Assembly (NCBI GenBank): GCA_024401695.1
Contig: JAKSKN010000008.1
Coordinates: forward strand, 2,871-66,870
Length of the DNA: 64,000 bases
DNA from: Bacteroidales bacterium
Lineage (GTDB): Bacteria; Bacteroidota; Bacteroidia; Bacteroidales; UBA932
Direction of reading: 5' to 3'
The notes beneath the pieces were generated by a model. That model saw only the letters and a list, made by a program, of their open reading frames with translations, searched no databases and had not been told where the DNA came from. The number at the start of each line of letters is the position of its first letter. The first letter of the stretch is position 1. This document shows, piece after piece, positions 54,440 to 61,022 of this stretch. The position numbers were made by a program, and so were the translations under genes.

Positions 54440-56482
54440 TTAGTTGATGAGGAATATCTTCTTCTGGCCCTTGTATGTACAGGTGACCGTTGTGCGCCCG
54501 GCCGAAACAGGAGCGATTTCAATCTTGACTGAAGGGTCGTTTGACCTGACATCAAGGACGGAGTTCTCTCCGAGCGGTCCGTAGACCTGATAGCGTGAGA
54601 CGTCGGCATATCCGTTGGCATTCGTGAAGCGGATAGGAGTATCAGGGATATTGAGCTTCTTTCCGTCAACCTTTATGGTGATGACAGGGACTGAAGGACG
54701 CTCGACCGCCACGTTCTTGTTGCTGAAGCCGATGCCCTGAAGGTCGAACAGACCCTTAGGCCGCTGAGGACGCATCATCATAGGAGGGCGGCGCTGCTGT
54801 GCGGGAGCAGCGATCTCAGGACCGTCAGCGACAAGATAGATTGCGTGCTTGCCCTTGAGTCCCTCGACCGCCTTGGCGACGTCAGCGGTAAATCTGGTGC
54901 ATACCTGAGGTGAATCCGCAGGGACATCGATCACGGCGATTTCCTTGCCGTTCCAGGTATCATTTGCATACGGACCGTCAAGCATCACGTGGATCCTGAA
55001 CGCATCCTTCACAGTCGGGGTGAGGAAAAGCTCGAGTCTGGTCTGATCCTTCTTCTTTGCGCCGGCAAATGCCTTGATACCCTTCTCGTCCTTTGCAAGT
55101 CCGCCGAAGCCGAAATACTTGAAGCCGACCACGCCGCCGTTGGTGATGCCGGCAAGATCCATATGGTTGTCCCAGTTGTCCCAGGTATCCTGAAGCCAGT
55201 CATTGCCTGTCATATAGCAGGCGATGCCGGCAGAATAGTATTTGAAAGGATCGAGGCCGAAGATGTTGAATCCCTCTGAAGTCACTTCGCCACCACGGTA
55301 GCAGGTACCGTCGGAAGCAGCTGCGACCCACTCGCCGTCCTTCAAGAACGGATCGTATCCGGTGATGCGCACTTCCCCGCCTTCAGCAACCGGTTTTTCG
55401 TCCCATTCGATCTTGACCGGTGCGACCATTGCCTGACGGGCATAGCCGAAGCCGCGCGGCGGACGATGATAGAATACATACCACTGGCCGTTGATCTCCT
55501 GGAGGGAACCGTGGGTGTTGTGTGCTGCGTTGGTGGTGGTGAGATGCTCGCCGTTGGCATCCGGGACAACGCCGCGGGAGTCAACGAGGACGCCGCCTGA
55601 GCGCCAAGGCCCGAGAGGGCTGTCGCCAAAGGCATAGCGGAGGGCGGAGTTGGTGCTTTCAAGCCCGTAGTCAGGGCCTGAGTATCCTGAGAACACCATC
55701 ACGTATTTATTGCCGACCTGGCGGATCGACGAAGCCTCGAAGAAATTGAATTCACCGGGATTCTGACCTTTGTAGAGAGAAGGATACTGAGTGCCTTCCG
55801 GGTCACGTACGACGCCGTATCGGGCACTTGCCGGAATGAAATAGTCGTGGATTTCAGTCCCGGGGCGCTTGCTGAACATCGTCCTCTGGTCAAGTTCCAC
55901 GGCCGTGGAGTGCTGGAAACCGTAATATACATATGCGCGGAACCCGATTTCATAGTCAGGGTCGGCAGGGTCGTTCACGTATTCGATGAACACTGAAGGG
56001 TCGAAGTCGATGAGACTGCCGGGCACGCAGGAGCGTCCGTCAGGAGTCAGGTTGACCGGTGTGAACGGGCCGTCGGGACGGTCACCCTTGCAGACGGTCG
56101 GGGTACGCCCCCAGCCGCGGCTGTGCGGATACAGCCAGTATGTCTTCTTTCCGTCCTTCCCTATGACTTCAACGAGGTCAGGAGCATACATTATATCCCA
56201 CTGGCCATCGACGAAATGCGTATAGATTGGACCTTCGTCAACCCAGTTGTTCAGGTCTTCCACCGGAGCGGACCACATATGGATATCCGGGCCGCAGTAC
56301 TGTGTATAAGCGAGGTCGTGCGAGCCGATGATGTAGGCACGGAGATGGCCCGGGTTGTCGGGATCTTCAAATACACGGGGTTCGCCGTCCGGAATATGCT
56401 CCCACAAAGGGAGATATGGGTTCTGGGCAAGCGCGATGACAGAAACGAGCGCTGCCGCTGCAATGGTGATGATTTTTTTCAT
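54440..56482 (-). CDS. GH43-like beta-propeller glycosidase with C-terminal accessory domain(s)
   Basis: NPYLPLWEHIPDGEPRVF, YAPD, DFDPSVF, FFEASS, NTHGS. Confidence 0.78.
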   Translation of the reverse strand: MKKIITIAAAALVSVIALAQNPYLPLWEHIPDGEPRVFEDPDNPGHLRAYIIGSHDLAYTQYCGPDIHMWSAPVEDLNNWVDEGPIYTHFVDGQWDIMYAPDLVEVIGKDGKKTYWLYPHSRGWGRTPTVCKGDRPDGPFTPVNLTPDGRSCVPGSLIDFDPSVFIEYVNDPADPDYEIGFRAYVYYGFQHSTAVELDQRTMFSKRPGTEIHDYFIPASARYGVVRDPEGTQYPSLYKGQNPGEFNFFEASSIRQVGNKYVMVFSGYSGPDYGLESTNSALRYAFGDSPLGPWRSGGVLVDSRGVVPDANGEHLTTTNAAHNTHGSLQEINGQWYVFYHRPPRGFGYARQAMVAPVKIEWDEKPVAEGGEVRITGYDPFLKDGEWVAAASDGTCYRGGEVTSEGFNIFGLDPFKYYSAGIACYMTGNDWLQDTWDNWDNHMDLAGITNGGVVGFKYFGFGGLAKDEKGIKAFAGAKKKDQTRLELFLTPTVKDAFRIHVMLDGPYANDTWNGKEIAVIDVPADSPQVCTRFTADVAKAVEGLKGKHAIYLVADGPEIAAPAQQRRPPMMMRPQRPKGLFDLQGIGFSNKNVAVERPSVPVITIKVDGKKLNIPDTPIRFTNANGYADVSRYQVYGPLGENSVLDVRSNDPSVKIEIAPVSAGRTTVTCTYKGQKKIFLIN

Positions 56483-56488
56483 ATCGGA

Positions 56489-58048
56489 TTATTGAATGAT
56501 TTGCTGATGGAAATAGTCGAAGTCGGCATAGCCGCCAAGCTGCTCCGTGGCGAAGCAGAAGAGGCCTGTGCGGTATCCGGTGAAATAGTCCAGGGTGAAC
56601 CGCATCTGGAGCTTGTAATCGATCTGGAGCCAGGTCTTGCGGTCATAGGAGTATGCCATCGTGGCGGTATCGTCGGTAAAGTCGTAGTCGAGACGCAGGA
56701 ACACGACGTCATCTTCAACAGGTATGTGGGAGAGAACCTCAAGAGGACGGCGGAAGCCCTCGACGGTAGCCTGGATGAACCTGTCACCGTCTTCGGCCTT
56801 GACGCCGATGGCGATCCTGTTGCTCTGGAACGTGCAGATGCCGGCAAAATCGCCGTCCTTGAGTCCGGAGGCGTCCATCTTGACGATGCTTGCACATTTA
56901 GGGCCGACGGTGCGCTGCGTGAGCGTATTGCGTGCGTCGGATATGCCTGTGGCAAGCTGTCCGGTGGTCAGGCGGAGCCATCCCTTGCGTTCGCTGTTGA
57001 TGGACCAGCAGCCATCGAGAGGCTTGTGGTTCCACTGCCATACGAGTGCAAGGTCCTTCTTGTTGAAATCGTCATTGTCCCAGACATATTCCTTGCCGGA
57101 TGCAGGGAGATTCACCTCGAATGACTCGAGAGGTTTGGTATCATCTCCGAAAATCGGCCAGCCGTCGACCCAGGTCACCGGCTGAAGCGTGATCACCCGG
57201 CCGACTGCACCGTGGTCCTGGAAGATGATGGAATACCAGTCTCCGTGCTGGGTCTCCACGATTGCGCCCTGTGCCACACCGTCGCCACGGCCGCCTATCG
57301 TGCCGTCGCATACCACCTTCTGCTCGTACGGGCCGGTGATACTGCTGCTGCGCCAGCACCGCTCGGTACGGTGTCCGCCGCGAGGCCAGTCGATCTCAAG
57401 AAGATAATAGTAATCACCTATATGGTAGAAGCGGGTGCCTTCGGCGCAGAGATTGAATCCCTCAGGGTTGAAATCGACGATGAGCTCGTTCACACCGCCT
57501 TCCTTGACACCCGACAGATCGGATTCAAGTTCGACAACGCGGAGCTCGCGGTTGCCGAATACGACATAATTGCGGCCGTCCTCATCGAAGAGGAGCGACG
57601 CATCGTGGAAGAAATCGTCTATGACGGAAACCTGTTCCCAATTGCTCTGCATCGCATCCTTCGTACGATAGATGAAAGTCTTGTGCAGGTCGTTGGTAAT
57701 GAAAAGGACATAGAAATATCCGTTGTGATACTGGAGTGACGTAGCCCACTGCCCCTTGCCGTATGCATTTCTGCCATTCTTCAGAAGGTACTGGTCAGCA
57801 TCGCCCAGGTCCGGGGTGACATAGCTTACGATTCTCCAGTGGACGAGGTCCTTTGAATGCATGATCGGCACCATCGGGCAGAAATACATCGTCGTGGTAA
57901 CCAGATAATAGTCATCCCCGACCCTGAGGACGTCGGGGTCAGGAGAATCCGAATAAGTGAGAGGATTGACGGCGATCGCATTCTGCTGCTGCGAGCAGGA
58001 GCACAGGACGCCGAAGCAAAGGACAATGGTTAAAAGTACACTTTTCAT
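56489..58048 (-). CDS. GH43 beta-xylosidase/arabinofuranosidase lipoprotein
   Basis: SPDPDV, WATSL, HDASL, AEGTR, VAQG; C-terminal beta-sandwich; lipobox-like LCSC. Confidence 0.9.
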   Translation of the reverse strand: MKSVLLTIVLCFGVLCSCSQQQNAIAVNPLTYSDSPDPDVLRVGDDYYLVTTTMYFCPMVPIMHSKDLVHWRIVSYVTPDLGDADQYLLKNGRNAYGKGQWATSLQYHNGYFYVLFITNDLHKTFIYRTKDAMQSNWEQVSVIDDFFHDASLLFDEDGRNYVVFGNRELRVVELESDLSGVKEGGVNELIVDFNPEGFNLCAEGTRFYHIGDYYYLLEIDWPRGGHRTERCWRSSSITGPYEQKVVCDGTIGGRGDGVAQGAIVETQHGDWYSIIFQDHGAVGRVITLQPVTWVDGWPIFGDDTKPLESFEVNLPASGKEYVWDNDDFNKKDLALVWQWNHKPLDGCWSINSERKGWLRLTTGQLATGISDARNTLTQRTVGPKCASIVKMDASGLKDGDFAGICTFQSNRIAIGVKAEDGDRFIQATVEGFRRPLEVLSHIPVEDDVVFLRLDYDFTDDTATMAYSYDRKTWLQIDYKLQMRFTLDYFTGYRTGLFCFATEQLGGYADFDYFHQQIIQ

Positions 58049-58099: not shown

Positions 58100-58255
58100 G
58101 AAAAAACCTCGTTGCATCACTGCGACGAGGTTTCGAATCAAACTAATAACACAATTTAACCAATATATTCTTTTATAGTCTAAGTTCAGTGCCGTTGAAA
58201 ACAGCCGTAGCGGAAACTATAAACGTCAAGCATGATCCTTGACAGTGCAAATATA
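58100..58255 (-). ncRNA. Candidate sRNA or attenuator leader (promoter, hairpins, 15-codon ORF, terminator)
   Basis: TATATTTG at 58255-58248; GTCAAG/CTTGAC and TTTATAGT/ACTATAAA stems; terminator AAACCTCG...CGAGGTTTTTT. Confidence 0.5.
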
Positions 58256-58281
58256 AAAAGCCGCTTCAAGAACGGCTTTTG
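58256..58281 (-). terminator. Intrinsic terminator after the sensor-AraC gene
   Basis: AAAAGCCG-TTCTTGAAG-CGGCTTTTT. Confidence 0.7.
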
Positions 58282-58328: not shown

Positions 58329-61022
58329 CTATATTTCGTTTGGAGATTTGCCGTAGAACGACTTGAAAGCCGTACTGAAGTAGCTTGACGATGAATATCC
58401 GCACATTTCTCCAACTTCCGTCACAGTGTATTTGTGAGACTGAAGAAGCTTGAGGGCATTGGTCATCCTGATGGTCTTTATGAATTCGGATGGCGACTGG
58501 TCGGACTGCGCCTTGAGTTTCTTGTAGAGGGAAGAAGCGCTGACGTTCATTTCCTTGGCAAAAAGGTCCTTGTCGAAAGACGGGTCCTGGATATGTGCAT
58601 ATACCACGCTGACAGCTTTCTTCACGAACGGGTCGTCAAGGTTTTCAAGGTCCTCCTCAGGCATCTGGCTTTCAACTTCCCTTGTAATGCCCATTATGGA
58701 CACAAAGCGGCTCTTCAGCTTGCCTGCATACAGTGTCCAGGCGGAATAGACCAGGAAATACAGCAATGCAAGTTCGATGAGTATGAACCACCAGCTCAAC
58801 CAGAACGGAGGCCTTACGGTGATGGTCATATCCCAGCTGTCAATGACTTCGTTGCCTGAAATGTCTGTCAGAAGAAGGTGGAAGGCATTCTTCCCGATGT
58901 TCAGCCTGTTAAAACGGCAGGACGAGGCGGTGGACAGGGGCGACCAGGCGCCGTCTATCCTTTCCATCCTCCATCGGAAGCGATAATCCTCCCGGTTCCC
59001 TCCCGTGACATTAAAATAAAATATGGCATTGCGCTGCGAATACTTCACAGTCAGCTCCTTAAGGTCATTGGCGGGAAGGATGTCCTCCGTGCCCTGAAGA
59101 TCCCGTACCGACACTCCGGAGAACACGATGTCTTCAACATAAAGCCGCATATCCGGCTTCCCGCATTTGATAAGCTTGGGGTCAAACCTCAGCAGACCGG
59201 ACTGTGTCCCCCAGAGCTGGACACCATCCGCCTTCAGCCAGCAGGCACCGGCATTGAAATTGCTGCGGGAAAATTCAATGATGTTCGGGAATGTCTCCAC
59301 CTTGTCAGTGAGCGTGTCGTAGCAGTCGAGCCCGACTTCATTGCCAAGCCAGAGCTTGCCTTCTTCCACAAGCACGGAATTCACGAAATTCGAATGCAGG
59401 CCCGAATTCATATCCAGATATCTGCAGGCTCCGGACGGAGTTTCGCAGAACAGCACTCCCCTTCCCGAAGTCGAGGCCCACACGCCATCGGAAGTCATCG
59501 CCACATCAGTCATCATCCCCTCGGCAAGCGTGCGTTCGTACATCGTATGCTTGTCGAACGCCAGCAATCCGTGCCGGCAGGCGAGATACAGCAGCCCGTC
59601 AGGGCCTGTGCAGCCGCCCTGTATGTCGTACGGTTCATATTCCTGGTATTTGCCCGTGCGGGCATCCTTGCGCAGCATAACACGGTTGCCGAGTATCCAT
59701 ATGTCGCCGTCACCATCCTCGACAAAGTCAAGGACCACATTCGGATTCCTGCCGTCAGGGACAAGAGCCCGGTCGTGATGTTCGAGTTCCCTGAGGGTGG
59801 CGGCATCGTAAATGAAGAAGCCGTTGCCGAAAGTGCCGACCCAGAGACGTCCGCTTCTGTCAAGATGGATGGCCCGGCAGGTATTTCCTATGCATATATG
59901 GTACCACCGGTGTTCTGGAAACCTCATCACGCTCACCCCTCCGTCCGTCGCCACGGCAGTTATACTAGAATCCTCAAAGACATCGTTGACGTGGTCGTTG
60001 ACAAGTGAATCATCGTCATTCACCCTGTGCCGTATGCAGCTCACGGGAGTGATCTCATCACGGAAATAATAAAGTCCGCCGCCATAGGTAGCGACCCAGA
60101 ACACGTTGTCGTGGTCGCAGAAGACATCATATACACCGTTGGAACCAAGACGCGTCTTGTCATCGTTGTTCTCGCTCTCGACTTCGACCAGAGAGCCGTC
60201 GGATGCCTTGCGGAACCAGAGCCCTCCGCCGTCATAGCTGACAATAAGCATATCGTCCCCATAAGGCCTGATGGTGCTGCACCAGTATGTAGGCGCATCA
60301 TCGATCTGATGAAGCGAATAGTCGGAAAGCTCGAGATAATAAAGTCCGAGGTAGCGGGTGCCTATCCAAAGCCTCTGCCTTGAGGCATCAAGATACAGCG
60401 ATGTCGCGTTGAGACGAGGGTCTCCGGTGGTCAGCGACTCGATACGTCCATCCCGGAGATTGACCCGGAACAGGCCGCAGCGCGACACGGCAAGGAGATT
60501 CCCGTTTTCATCAAAGCAGATTGAGGAATGGTTCGGGGCCCGGTTTTCATCCAGAATGGTGGACAGTCCTGCGGATTCATCATATTTCAATATTCCGACG
60601 GATGTCGCGGCAATGAGGCTGCCGTCCGGTGCGACAAGCAGCTGGTTGATTGCAAAATAATTGACATTCGCAACCTCGGCGAAGTCACAGAGGCGCTCGA
60701 AGCGGTCCTGAGCCTCGTCATAGACATACACGAGACCGCAGTCGGCGTGGGCGTACAGCCTGTGGTTTCCGAATGTAAGCCGGTTGATGTTGACCGCCTG
60801 GCCCTCGCGCGGCAGACGATATGTCTTGCTGCCGCTGAAAGTGAAACGCACTACACCAAGCTTGTAGGACGCCCAGATGAAGCCGTGCTCGTCTTCACAT
60901 ACCGATGCCGTCTGGCGGATTGCAAGGCCCAGCTCGTCATTGATACAATGAAACTCCCTTCCGAATGCAAGACACGCATCCAGAAGCAGGGCAAACGCAA
61001 ATATGAACCTCCTACCTGACAA
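58329..61022 (-). CDS. HTCS-like periplasmic beta-propeller + Y_Y_Y sensor fused via one TM directly to an AraC HTH
   Basis: Repeated D..G.LWIGT/GL..Y propeller blades, PPFWLSWW-TM, then SLYKKLK...IRM..A..LL...VGYSSSSYFSTAFK..YG.SP; TTG start. Confidence 0.88.
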   Translation of the reverse strand: MSGRRFIFAFALLLDACLAFGREFHCINDELGLAIRQTASVCEDEHGFIWASYKLGVVRFTFSGSKTYRLPREGQAVNINRLTFGNHRLYAHADCGLVYVYDEAQDRFERLCDFAEVANVNYFAINQLLVAPDGSLIAATSVGILKYDESAGLSTILDENRAPNHSSICFDENGNLLAVSRCGLFRVNLRDGRIESLTTGDPRLNATSLYLDASRQRLWIGTRYLGLYYLELSDYSLHQIDDAPTYWCSTIRPYGDDMLIVSYDGGGLWFRKASDGSLVEVESENNDDKTRLGSNGVYDVFCDHDNVFWVATYGGGLYYFRDEITPVSCIRHRVNDDDSLVNDHVNDVFEDSSITAVATDGGVSVMRFPEHRWYHICIGNTCRAIHLDRSGRLWVGTFGNGFFIYDAATLRELEHHDRALVPDGRNPNVVLDFVEDGDGDIWILGNRVMLRKDARTGKYQEYEPYDIQGGCTGPDGLLYLACRHGLLAFDKHTMYERTLAEGMMTDVAMTSDGVWASTSGRGVLFCETPSGACRYLDMNSGLHSNFVNSVLVEEGKLWLGNEVGLDCYDTLTDKVETFPNIIEFSRSNFNAGACWLKADGVQLWGTQSGLLRFDPKLIKCGKPDMRLYVEDIVFSGVSVRDLQGTEDILPANDLKELTVKYSQRNAIFYFNVTGGNREDYRFRWRMERIDGAWSPLSTASSCRFNRLNIGKNAFHLLLTDISGNEVIDSWDMTITVRPPFWLSWWFILIELALLYFLVYSAWTLYAGKLKSRFVSIMGITREVESQMPEEDLENLDDPFVKKAVSVVYAHIQDPSFDKDLFAKEMNVSASSLYKKLKAQSDQSPSEFIKTIRMTNALKLLQSHKYTVTEVGEMCGYSSSSYFSTAFKSFYGKSPNEI

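Follow-up and report, generated by a model that had tools for sequence, protein, structure and literature searches.

The intergenic unit and its flanking genes

The stretch of DNA analysed here (the window, 64,000 nt) corresponds to C73:2871-66870 of a Bacteroidales metagenome-assembled genome (MAG, 2.66 Mb in 74 contigs), the closest relatives of which were deposited as Candidatus Cryptobacteroides, with ruminant and other gut metagenomes as sources. Between a regulator gene (58329..61022, minus strand, stop codon at 58329) and a gene with the glycoside hydrolase (GH) domains GH43 and GH43_C2 (56489..58048, minus strand, ATG at 58048) lies a short unit on the same strand, which an earlier note on this DNA had described as self-contained and as either a small RNA (sRNA) or a peptide-leader attenuator gating the GH43 gene. 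Judged from its sequence features this unit is most likely a non-coding RNA gene with its own promoter and terminator which would encode a regulatory sRNA of an undescribed family, and we regard it as highly probable that a discrete structured RNA is made from this promoter, designated P1. The description of the unit as a self-contained sRNA or leader before GH43 was borne out by the -7 box, terminator, covariation, conserved core and synteny presented below, while its peptide-leader version was not.

The regulator is a protein of 897 amino acids (aa) in which Pfam identified Reg_prop, Y_Y_Y and AraC-type HTH domains, and the Pfam scan gave no kinase or receiver domain (HisKA, HATPase, receiver). 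The size of this short form was unchanged in its orthologues, which share 42-91% identity. The GH43 gene is the first of a downstream GH operon, where it is followed by the gene for a 680-aa protein (54440..56482, minus strand), a GH8 gene and a GH95/CE4 fusion. The regulator, GH43, GH8 and GH95/CE4 genes were those which had been named earlier, while the supposed second GH43 gene proved to be that of the 680-aa protein, for which no Pfam match was obtained at E <= 0.001. A gene for a 680-aa protein is also found 3' of GH43 at two related loci, L169 and L170.

Every element of the unit listed in the earlier note was found where it had been placed on the minus strand, on which all features described below are read. 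The terminator hairpin of the regulator gene, AAAAGCCGTTCTTGAAGCGGCTTTT (58280-58256), is followed by the -7 box of P1, TATATTTG (58255-58248), which conforms to the Bacteroidota consensus TAnnTTTG. The predicted sRNA transcript of ~143 nt would extend from 58243 to 58101, its 5' end being placed from the -7 box and its 3' end from the U-tract. The first element is a 5' hairpin (hairpin 1, GTCAAG-N7-CTTGAC, 58243-58225), and this is followed by stem 2 (GTTTATAGTTT...AGACTATAAA, 58224-58214 with 58181-58172, 58224-58172 in all), a variable 5' domain within which lies an inner hairpin, GGCTGTTTTCAACGGC (58206-58191). An open reading frame (ORF) of 15 codons running from ATG to TGA (MLDVYSFRYGCFQRH and stop, 58233-58186) overlaps the 5' hairpins and ends 52 nt before the terminator; we judged it to be non-coding. 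The GU-rich core of 34 nt, AAUAUAUUGGUUAAAUUGUGUUAUUAGUUUGAUU (58169-58136), contains two putative seeds, R1 (58169-58157) and R2 (58151-58135), and is followed by the intrinsic terminator, GAAACCTCGTCGCAGTGATGCAACGAGG with T6 (58134-58101). The terminator has a 13-bp stem with one mismatch (-17.2 kcal/mol) and the apex GCA-GUGA-UGC (58123-58114), which is capped by a GUGA tetraloop and located inside CGCAGTGATGCA at 58124-58113. This main terminator was missed by a simple terminator scanner, probably because of the internal mismatch, and is shown by folding.

Folding of a 151-nt RNA gave -42.4 kcal/mol, a stability equalled by none of 200 dinucleotide shuffles (z = -3.53). The 5' hairpins were unchanged across the sRNA, nascent and read-through folds. 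No antiterminator was found in nascent-RNA folding, where the 5' arm of the terminator gained only weak partners when the 3' arm was withheld. With a canonical -7 box, an intrinsic terminator and no conserved coding potential, the unit has three of the features by which terminator-bounded sRNA genes of Bacteroidota are recognized.

Conservation of the module and relatives of the RNA

BLASTn searches with the intergenic region revealed no copy in 36 same-genus species or in 24 other genomes of the order, and no paralogue in the window's own genome, where the RNA is single-copy. Homologues upstream of other operons for carbohydrate-active enzymes (CAZymes), an expectation raised by the earlier note, were likewise absent from this genome by both Rfam and BLASTn. 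Relatives were reached only through searches with the flanking proteins and through covariance models, model R1 being built on the first three copies (window, L023, L024) and model R2 on the core. The RNA was found at six related loci (L023, L024, L169, L170, L168 and L166). The order regulator, RNA, GH43 is kept in the sister species L023 and L024, where GH43 is 94% and 91% identical, respectively. The regulator-protein search returned a cluster at 88% identity (L169-L171) together with two much more divergent orthologues, which share 44% and 42% (L166, L167, L168), and the RNA follows regulator orthologues of 88-91%, 44% and 42% identity. Model R1 scored 137-183 bits in L023, L024, L169 and L170 (137-143 bits in the last two) and 61 bits in L168, whose RNA reached 93 bits with model R2. 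At L168 the gene after the RNA is again GH43 with GH43_C2. The L166 contig stops within the RNA, after a recognizable -7 box and CCGCUAC-hairpin segment and with only the beginning of the core present. Since the L168 and L166 copies retain the RNA, the module of regulator, RNA and GH43 is conserved to a depth of 42% regulator identity. GH43 orthologues within the genus at ~60% identity have a different upstream gene and no RNA.

The 34-nt core is identical in the window, L023, L024, L169, L170 and L168, that is, in every complete regulator-linked copy. When 4.5 kb were aligned among three sequences, the most conserved of all 50-nt bins was 58173-58124 with an identity of 0.98, coding bins averaging ~0.78. 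The 5' domain varies, being partly remodelled in L170 and replaced by a single short hairpin in L168. Its helices are nevertheless preserved by compensatory change: hairpin 1 is paired in 100% of cells with both-side changes in two of its seven pairs (variants GUCAAG/CUUGAC, GUCAGG/CCUGAC and GUCAGA/UCUGAC), and stem 2 and the inner hairpin contain one compensatory pair each. Outside this domain, the lower part of the terminator stem has changed on both sides in L168, and it also covaries in L145, a relative described below. For the structure as a whole, 91.9% of cells were paired over five sequences and five pairs had changed on both sides, compared with a mean of 2.4 such pairs in shuffled controls (at least five in 6 of 500) and 0-2 when the structure was slid along the alignment. 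We consider the covariation supportive and not conclusive because the sample is small. Conservation of the structure in related genomes, which the earlier note had left to be looked for, was thus found together with compensatory changes. The same was not true of the 15-codon ORF. At L023 a GTT stands in place of its ATG with no other in-frame start; in L024 a TTG opens a frame which closes after four codons, the result of a 1-nt deletion; no start codon is in frame at L170, and at L168 the entire ORF segment is missing. The conservation of a small peptide which had been suggested as a check was therefore not observed at these four loci.

Covariance searches with model R1 over 400 genomes of the genus and with model R2 over 400 genomes of the family produced few further members. 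The clearest of these is L145 in G123 (79 bits with model R2), which has a TAACTTTG box, a 5' hairpin, the stretch GAUUGGUUAGUUGUUAUUAAUUGAUU and the terminator apex GCUGUGAAGC. On one side of it is a radical-SAM/SPASM gene in divergent orientation and on the other a GH3 gene in convergent orientation, so that the RNA is no leader there. Convergent ORFs also come after the relatives at L156 and L173, and relatives placed before convergent genes (L145, L156, L173) cannot be leaders.

Many weaker model matches were different RNAs with nothing in common beyond the apex CGCAGUGAUGCR, which is carried on a lower stem that covaries. When the genome was scanned for the apex GC(A/U)-GNRA-(A/U)GC on a stem of at least 5 bp with a T-tract, exactly two hairpins were obtained, that of the present RNA and that of an element we call family B; because there are only two, the apex appears specific to sRNA-like genes and not general to terminators. 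Family B, family C, L161, L174 and L175 were rejected as members, as they have mainly the apex and GU-richness in common with the RNA, and are possibly related modules. Family B is an sRNA-like gene of ~75 nt (GAAGUUUUUCAUAGUUUAAGUUUAGGUUAAGUAGC and a hairpin) on contig C12 of G000 at ~192997-193075 (+), outside the window, and occurs also in L146-L150, L152, L153, L155, L159 and L160, with a TAnnTTTG box present. Family B includes a stretch of 29 nt, UUUUUCAUAGUUUAAGUUUAGGUUAAGUA, which does not differ between this genome and most copies from other Cryptobacteroides species. The terminator has a GCA-GNRA-UGC apex (with a GGGA loop in this genome's copy), and in several species the gene lies directly upstream of a conserved lipoprotein of ~360 aa. 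Family C is an intergenic RNA-like element (AAUAGUUUUUUCAUAGGUUAAGUUUUAGGUUAGAAUUGC and a hairpin, with the apex GCAGUGAUGC or GCUGUGAAGC) in L151, L154, L157 and L158; it is located downstream of a conserved ORF of 234-249 aa, and a convergent ORF comes next in L154, L157 and L158. One further match, L176:1501-1574 (-) in G482, was rejected as a stand-alone unit, being the 3' untranslated region (UTR) of a coding gene; it contains ACUAUAAAAUAAUUGGUUAAUUGG and a GNRA-capped terminator, like the junction of stem 2 and core, and may be either a 3'-UTR-derived relative or a chance likeness.

Searches of Rfam 15 at permissive E-values gave no family at its gathering threshold and none at even 25 bits. 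The best scores were those of PyrR (22.9 bits, threshold 54), trpB (21.6 bits, threshold 59) and BTnc049 (20.2 bits, threshold 81.9), all with E > 1. Twelve related loci gave no Rfam match at E <= 0.1, and none was obtained for family B.

In the wider neighbourhood, a complete ORF of 1318 aa which is hybrid two-component-like by sequence lies on the same strand 4 kb upstream of the regulator. Also upstream of the regulator on the contig are a GH31 gene, a gene for a protein of 543 aa (GH97 domains were found in the orthologue from a related contig) and divergent ORFs of 1018 and 642 aa which have the size of susC and susD and are putatively assigned as such. Past the right end of the window, at C73:81121-95267 (-), is an ORF of 3464 aa which is non-ribosomal peptide synthetase (NRPS)-like by its condensation-, adenylation- and reductase-like sequence, adjoined by an adenylation/thioesterase-like ORF of 820 aa and an ORF of 432 aa. 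An NRPS cluster is unusual in a small Bacteroidales genome.

Promoter, pairing sites and alternative readings

An exact TAnnTTTG was found in front of all seven copies of the RNA (TATATTTG, TATCTTTG, TACTTTTG, TAACTTTG), and in regulator-linked copies (TATATTTG, TATCTTTG or TACTTTTG) the distance from the -7 box to the first hairpin is constant. Among genes of this genome with at least 120 nt free upstream only 30% have an exact TAnnTTTG, and in 70% it is absent. Just upstream of P1 are two direct repeats of 16 bp, separated by a 5-bp spacer and thus 21 bp apart, which had not been included in the earlier note; nor does that note mention the invariance of the core, its complementarity to the GH43 start or the stand-alone relatives elsewhere. 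Both repeats fall within the regulator's 3' UTR. The first, TATCCAATTTCAAAAG (58312-58297), would form the distal half of a putative operator of the AraC or hybrid two-component system (HTCS) type. The second, TATCCATTTTCAAAAG (58291-58276), would be the proximal half and overlaps the expected -33 region of P1, and the regulator terminator hairpin fills the spacer between it and the -7 box. At L168 and L166 a hairpin of other sequence occupies the position of this terminator. The repeat pair is unique in the 2.66-Mb genome and is kept, with drift, at five loci (L023, L024, L170, L168, L166). L166, a locus with a regulator of 44% identity, apparently contains three copies of the repeat and not two (AATTATTCGGATTCAAAC, AATTACCTGTTTTCAAAC and ATTTACTCAATTTCTAAC, L166:5650-5745). 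Comparative genomics of Bacteroides predicted AraC-type HTCS sites as 'two 16-bp sites separated by a 5-bp spacer' (PMC3878776), and the layout observed here (16+5+16 bp) is the architecture predicted for those motifs. We infer that the neighbouring sensor, or else the complete HTCS farther upstream, may control P1.

Between the terminator and the GH43 gene there is a possible weak second promoter, TATTATTG (58096-58079), with one mismatch to TAnnTTTG and with GCTAAATTGCA conserved. It includes the imperfect -7 box TAAATTG which had been reported before GH43 and which is indeed present at 58087-58081. The segment is kept in four close relatives and not in L168, and no copy has an exact TAnnTTTG there.

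Complementarity to the core was found both beside the unit and elsewhere in the genome. In the GH43 5' UTR the segment CUGAAUUGAAACUAAUAAU, at -27 to -9 (58075-58057), is complementary to seed R2, with which it pairs through UGUUAUUAGUUUGAUUC (58151-58135) with one bulge. For the core-GH43 duplex, energies between -13 and -14.6 kcal/mol were predicted in the window and in L023, L024 and L170, and three of the substitutions within the duplex are A-to-G opposite U. When the read-through transcript was folded, pairing between the core and the GH43 5' UTR had a probability of 0.9-1.0 and lengthened the terminator stem. Over the whole genome only two perfect complements of at least 13 nt to the core were obtained (13-14 nt), and these are at the starts of a GH9 and a GH3 gene: CAAACUAAUAACA at -19 of the GH9 gene (C2:63799) and UAACCAAUAUAUUC at -18 of the GH3/PA14 gene (C23:118065). 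Both sites are conserved islands in otherwise diverging 5' UTRs (G790, G791). Other good matches to the core were at GH5-like, GH127 and further GH43 genes, of which GH127 and one GH43 were confirmed by Pfam. Rankings of start regions by duplex energy and longest helix were suggestive and not significant; the GH43 start region was ranked 31 of 2261, the best within the locus, and the putative susC 1824 of 2261. A k-mer-seeded duplex scan of the genome was uninformative, with GC-rich windows containing unrealistic long loops at the top.

From these observations we propose that the adjacent kinase-less AraC-type glycan sensor would bind the operator upstream of P1, that transcription would start near 58243 and mostly end near 58101, and that the released RNA of ~143 nt would combine a variable structured 5' domain, the invariant GU-rich region of 34 nt and the GUGA-capped terminator hairpin. 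The invariant region would act as one or two seeds which pair with A-rich translation-initiation regions of glycoside hydrolase mRNAs. Candidate targets are the unlinked GH3 and GH9 mRNAs and the mRNA of GH43, which could be reached in trans or, on read-through transcripts, in cis. Such pairing would modulate translation of the targets, as the sRNAs GibS and FopS do in Bacteroides. We lean slightly towards this reading of a regulator-driven base-pairing sRNA which is possibly also a leader. With regard to its parts, action in trans by base pairing appears about evenly balanced, and the dependence of GH43 operon expression on read-through is a tentative suggestion which we hold to be somewhat doubtful. 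The sRNA and leader readings can be compatible, as a promoter-proximal terminator may set free an sRNA and still let some of the transcripts continue. An independent sRNA is favoured by the strong conserved terminator without alternative pairing, by the stand-alone relatives and by the invariance of the core despite a lost cis site. A bolder version, in which the direct output of the phosphorylation-free sensor, instead of or besides an enzyme operon, is an sRNA with a bipartite seed co-ordinating translation of unlinked GH43, GH3 and GH9 mRNAs and the GUGA apex denotes a clade-wide sRNA class with a common RNA-binding protein, is speculative and we consider it distinctly unlikely.

Several points weigh against the regulator-driven base-pairing sRNA. 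No clear -33 element was seen at P1, and the covariation, although supportive, rests on five to seven sequences only. At L168 the GH43 complementarity is missing (-5.4 kcal/mol) with the core unchanged, so that GH43 pairing cannot be what keeps the core invariant. Shuffled cores equalled the observed 12-mer start-region matches in ~5% of trials (p ~0.05), GU-rich seeds match A-rich Bacteroidota 5' UTRs generally, and the starts of the GH3 and GH9 orthologues in G123 show no match to the L145 RNA. Because of these marginal shuffle statistics, the general GU/A-rich matching and the G123 mismatch, the targets are proposed here as candidates only. Finally, because the operator precedes P1 and no exact promoter follows the terminator, the RNA could be primarily a GH43 leader.

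This last possibility, a purely cis-acting leader or attenuator, is the alternative which survives best, and we rate it as rather unlikely. P1 would be the glycan-induced promoter of the GH43-GH8-GH95/CE4 operon, the terminator a checkpoint overridden by a protein or another RNA, pairing of the core with the GH43 start would set translation in read-through transcripts, and the released RNA would be functionless. The HTCS-type operator precedes P1 and nothing else, the order of regulator, RNA and GH43 on one strand persists down to the most distant regulators, and the pairing in the read-through fold would suit such a leader well. The gap from terminator to ATG is only 33-53 nt, and in five of five copies it holds no exact TAnnTTTG, only versions with one mismatch. 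However, the missing -7 box is a weak argument for read-through, an exact one being present in just 30% of comparable genes, and a second promoter before GH43 is possible since the other 70% of long-upstream genes do without. No antiterminator pairing was found, and the 5' arm of the terminator is essentially free in the nascent RNA. The loss of cis complementarity at L168 with an invariant core, and the relatives which stand alone before convergent genes, also argue against a role confined to cis and for an sRNA.

Invariance of 34 nt across lineages in the absence of conserved predicted mRNA sites would also fit a protein-binding RNA, a sponge or scaffold in which the core and the GUGA-capped hairpin form a platform for, as an example, an RbpB-type RRM protein. 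The occurrence of the terminator apex in otherwise unrelated sRNA-like genes of the genus points the same way, and RbpB binds GibS and FopS in Bacteroides (PMC11697453). In those known cases, however, protein binding accompanies base pairing and does not replace it, and long perfect complements to the core are present at GH starts, so we consider this reading very unlikely.

It is extremely unlikely that the region is a DNA-level element only, made up of regulator binding sites and GH43 promoter elements with no discrete RNA. The direct repeats are typical of AraC/HTCS regulators, but compensatory changes preserve RNA helices, the hairpin and U-tract are kept while the lower stem covaries, relatives occur without such a regulator nearby, and the 34-bp invariant block is far longer and stricter than an operator half-site. 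A peptide-leader attenuator, in which translation of the 15-codon ORF (58233-58186) would control terminator formation, has next to nothing in its favour beyond an ATG-started ORF overlapping the 5' hairpins, and is refuted by the loss of start, frame or the whole segment in relatives, by the lack of alternative pairing and by an ORF which stops well short of the terminator.

Comparison with known systems

The arrangement of a promoter-proximal terminator which frees a trans-acting RNA while read-through yields mRNA is known from 5'-UTR-derived sRNAs such as the riboswitch-derived SreA and SreB of Listeria. Unlike in that case, no ligand-binding aptamer (Rfam) or alternative structure (folding) was found here. 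Among Rfam families, RF04179 (BTnc049, a Bacteroides sRNA candidate) has a weak likeness in its GU-rich stretch and terminator, and membership was rejected (20.2 bits against a gathering threshold of 81.9, E = 1.4).

What is known in detail of the post-transcriptional control of glycan utilisation by sRNAs comes only from a small number of cultured strains of Bacteroides and Segatella (GibS, FopS, DonS, SrcF), and sRNA pairing with translation-initiation regions of glycan-utilisation mRNAs is established in Bacteroides (PMC11697453). Closest in size and proposed mode of action is GibS of B. thetaiotaomicron, an intergenic sRNA of 145 nt with two single-stranded seeds and an intrinsic terminator, which is glycan-responsive and pairs with the start regions of carbohydrate-metabolism mRNAs including that of a GH13 enzyme (PMC11697453, PMC13750123). 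The two RNAs are alike in length, stand-alone gene and terminator, and the present RNA has two putative seed regions as well. They have no sequence or covariance-model similarity and belong to different families of Bacteroidales, and whereas the promoter motif of GibS is non-canonical, the RNA described here has a canonical -7 box and a direct-repeat operator, and its site is within a locus for glycan utilisation, immediately ahead of a GH operon.

FopS comprises 14 paralogous sRNAs of 65-70 nt in B. thetaiotaomicron which are bound by RbpB and repress SusC translation (PMC11697453). Canonical TAnnTTTG promoters, a terminator-bounded transcript, pairing near the start codon (proposed for the present RNA) and a module which recurs across several sRNA genes are points of likeness. 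FopS RNAs are short and multicopy with a 5' seed and SusC targets, whereas the present RNA is longer and single-copy with a putative internal seed, matches the putative susC of its own locus poorly (rank 1824/2261) and has no detected homology to them.

SrcF of Segatella copri is an sRNA of 272 nt which is repressed through HTCS-Inu (bioRxiv 10.1101/2024.04.05.588293; review PMC13750123), and offers the precedent of a Bacteroidales sRNA whose level is tied to a glycan-sensing HTCS and which affects glycan-utilisation loci. By its description SrcF is not placed adjacent to HTCS-Inu, whereas here an operator-like repeat lies on the sRNA promoter beside the regulator. DonS-type RNAs, in the account of them cited in PMC13750123, are cis-antisense RNAs of Bacteroides glycan loci, antisense to the target operon. 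On that account DonS resembles the present RNA in being a small RNA encoded within a polysaccharide utilisation locus, the locus which DonS controls, and differs in that the RNA described here is intergenic and has the same orientation as its neighbour, to which its complementarity is short and imperfect.

As far as sequence comparison goes, we rate this RNA as the founder of a new family, in an uncultured lineage, of a type of regulator which is already known. Uncultured fibre-degrading Bacteroidales of the rumen and hindgut may have their own unrelated sRNA families, one of them apparently wired to a glycan sensor through an operator. If confirmed, the module (sensor, operator, sRNA and GH targets) would be compact enough for studying priorities in hemicellulose degradation, the GU-rich seed with a GNRA-capped terminator would provide a signature for finding sRNAs in MAGs, and an unusual kinase-less HTCS-like regulator would gain a concrete output. 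A circuit leading from sensor to sRNA to regulon inside a polysaccharide utilisation locus would, if true, be undescribed in Bacteroidota. The RNA is set apart from GibS, FopS and SrcF by its single copy, its site before a GH operon within a glycan locus and the operator-like repeat by a kinase-less sensor.

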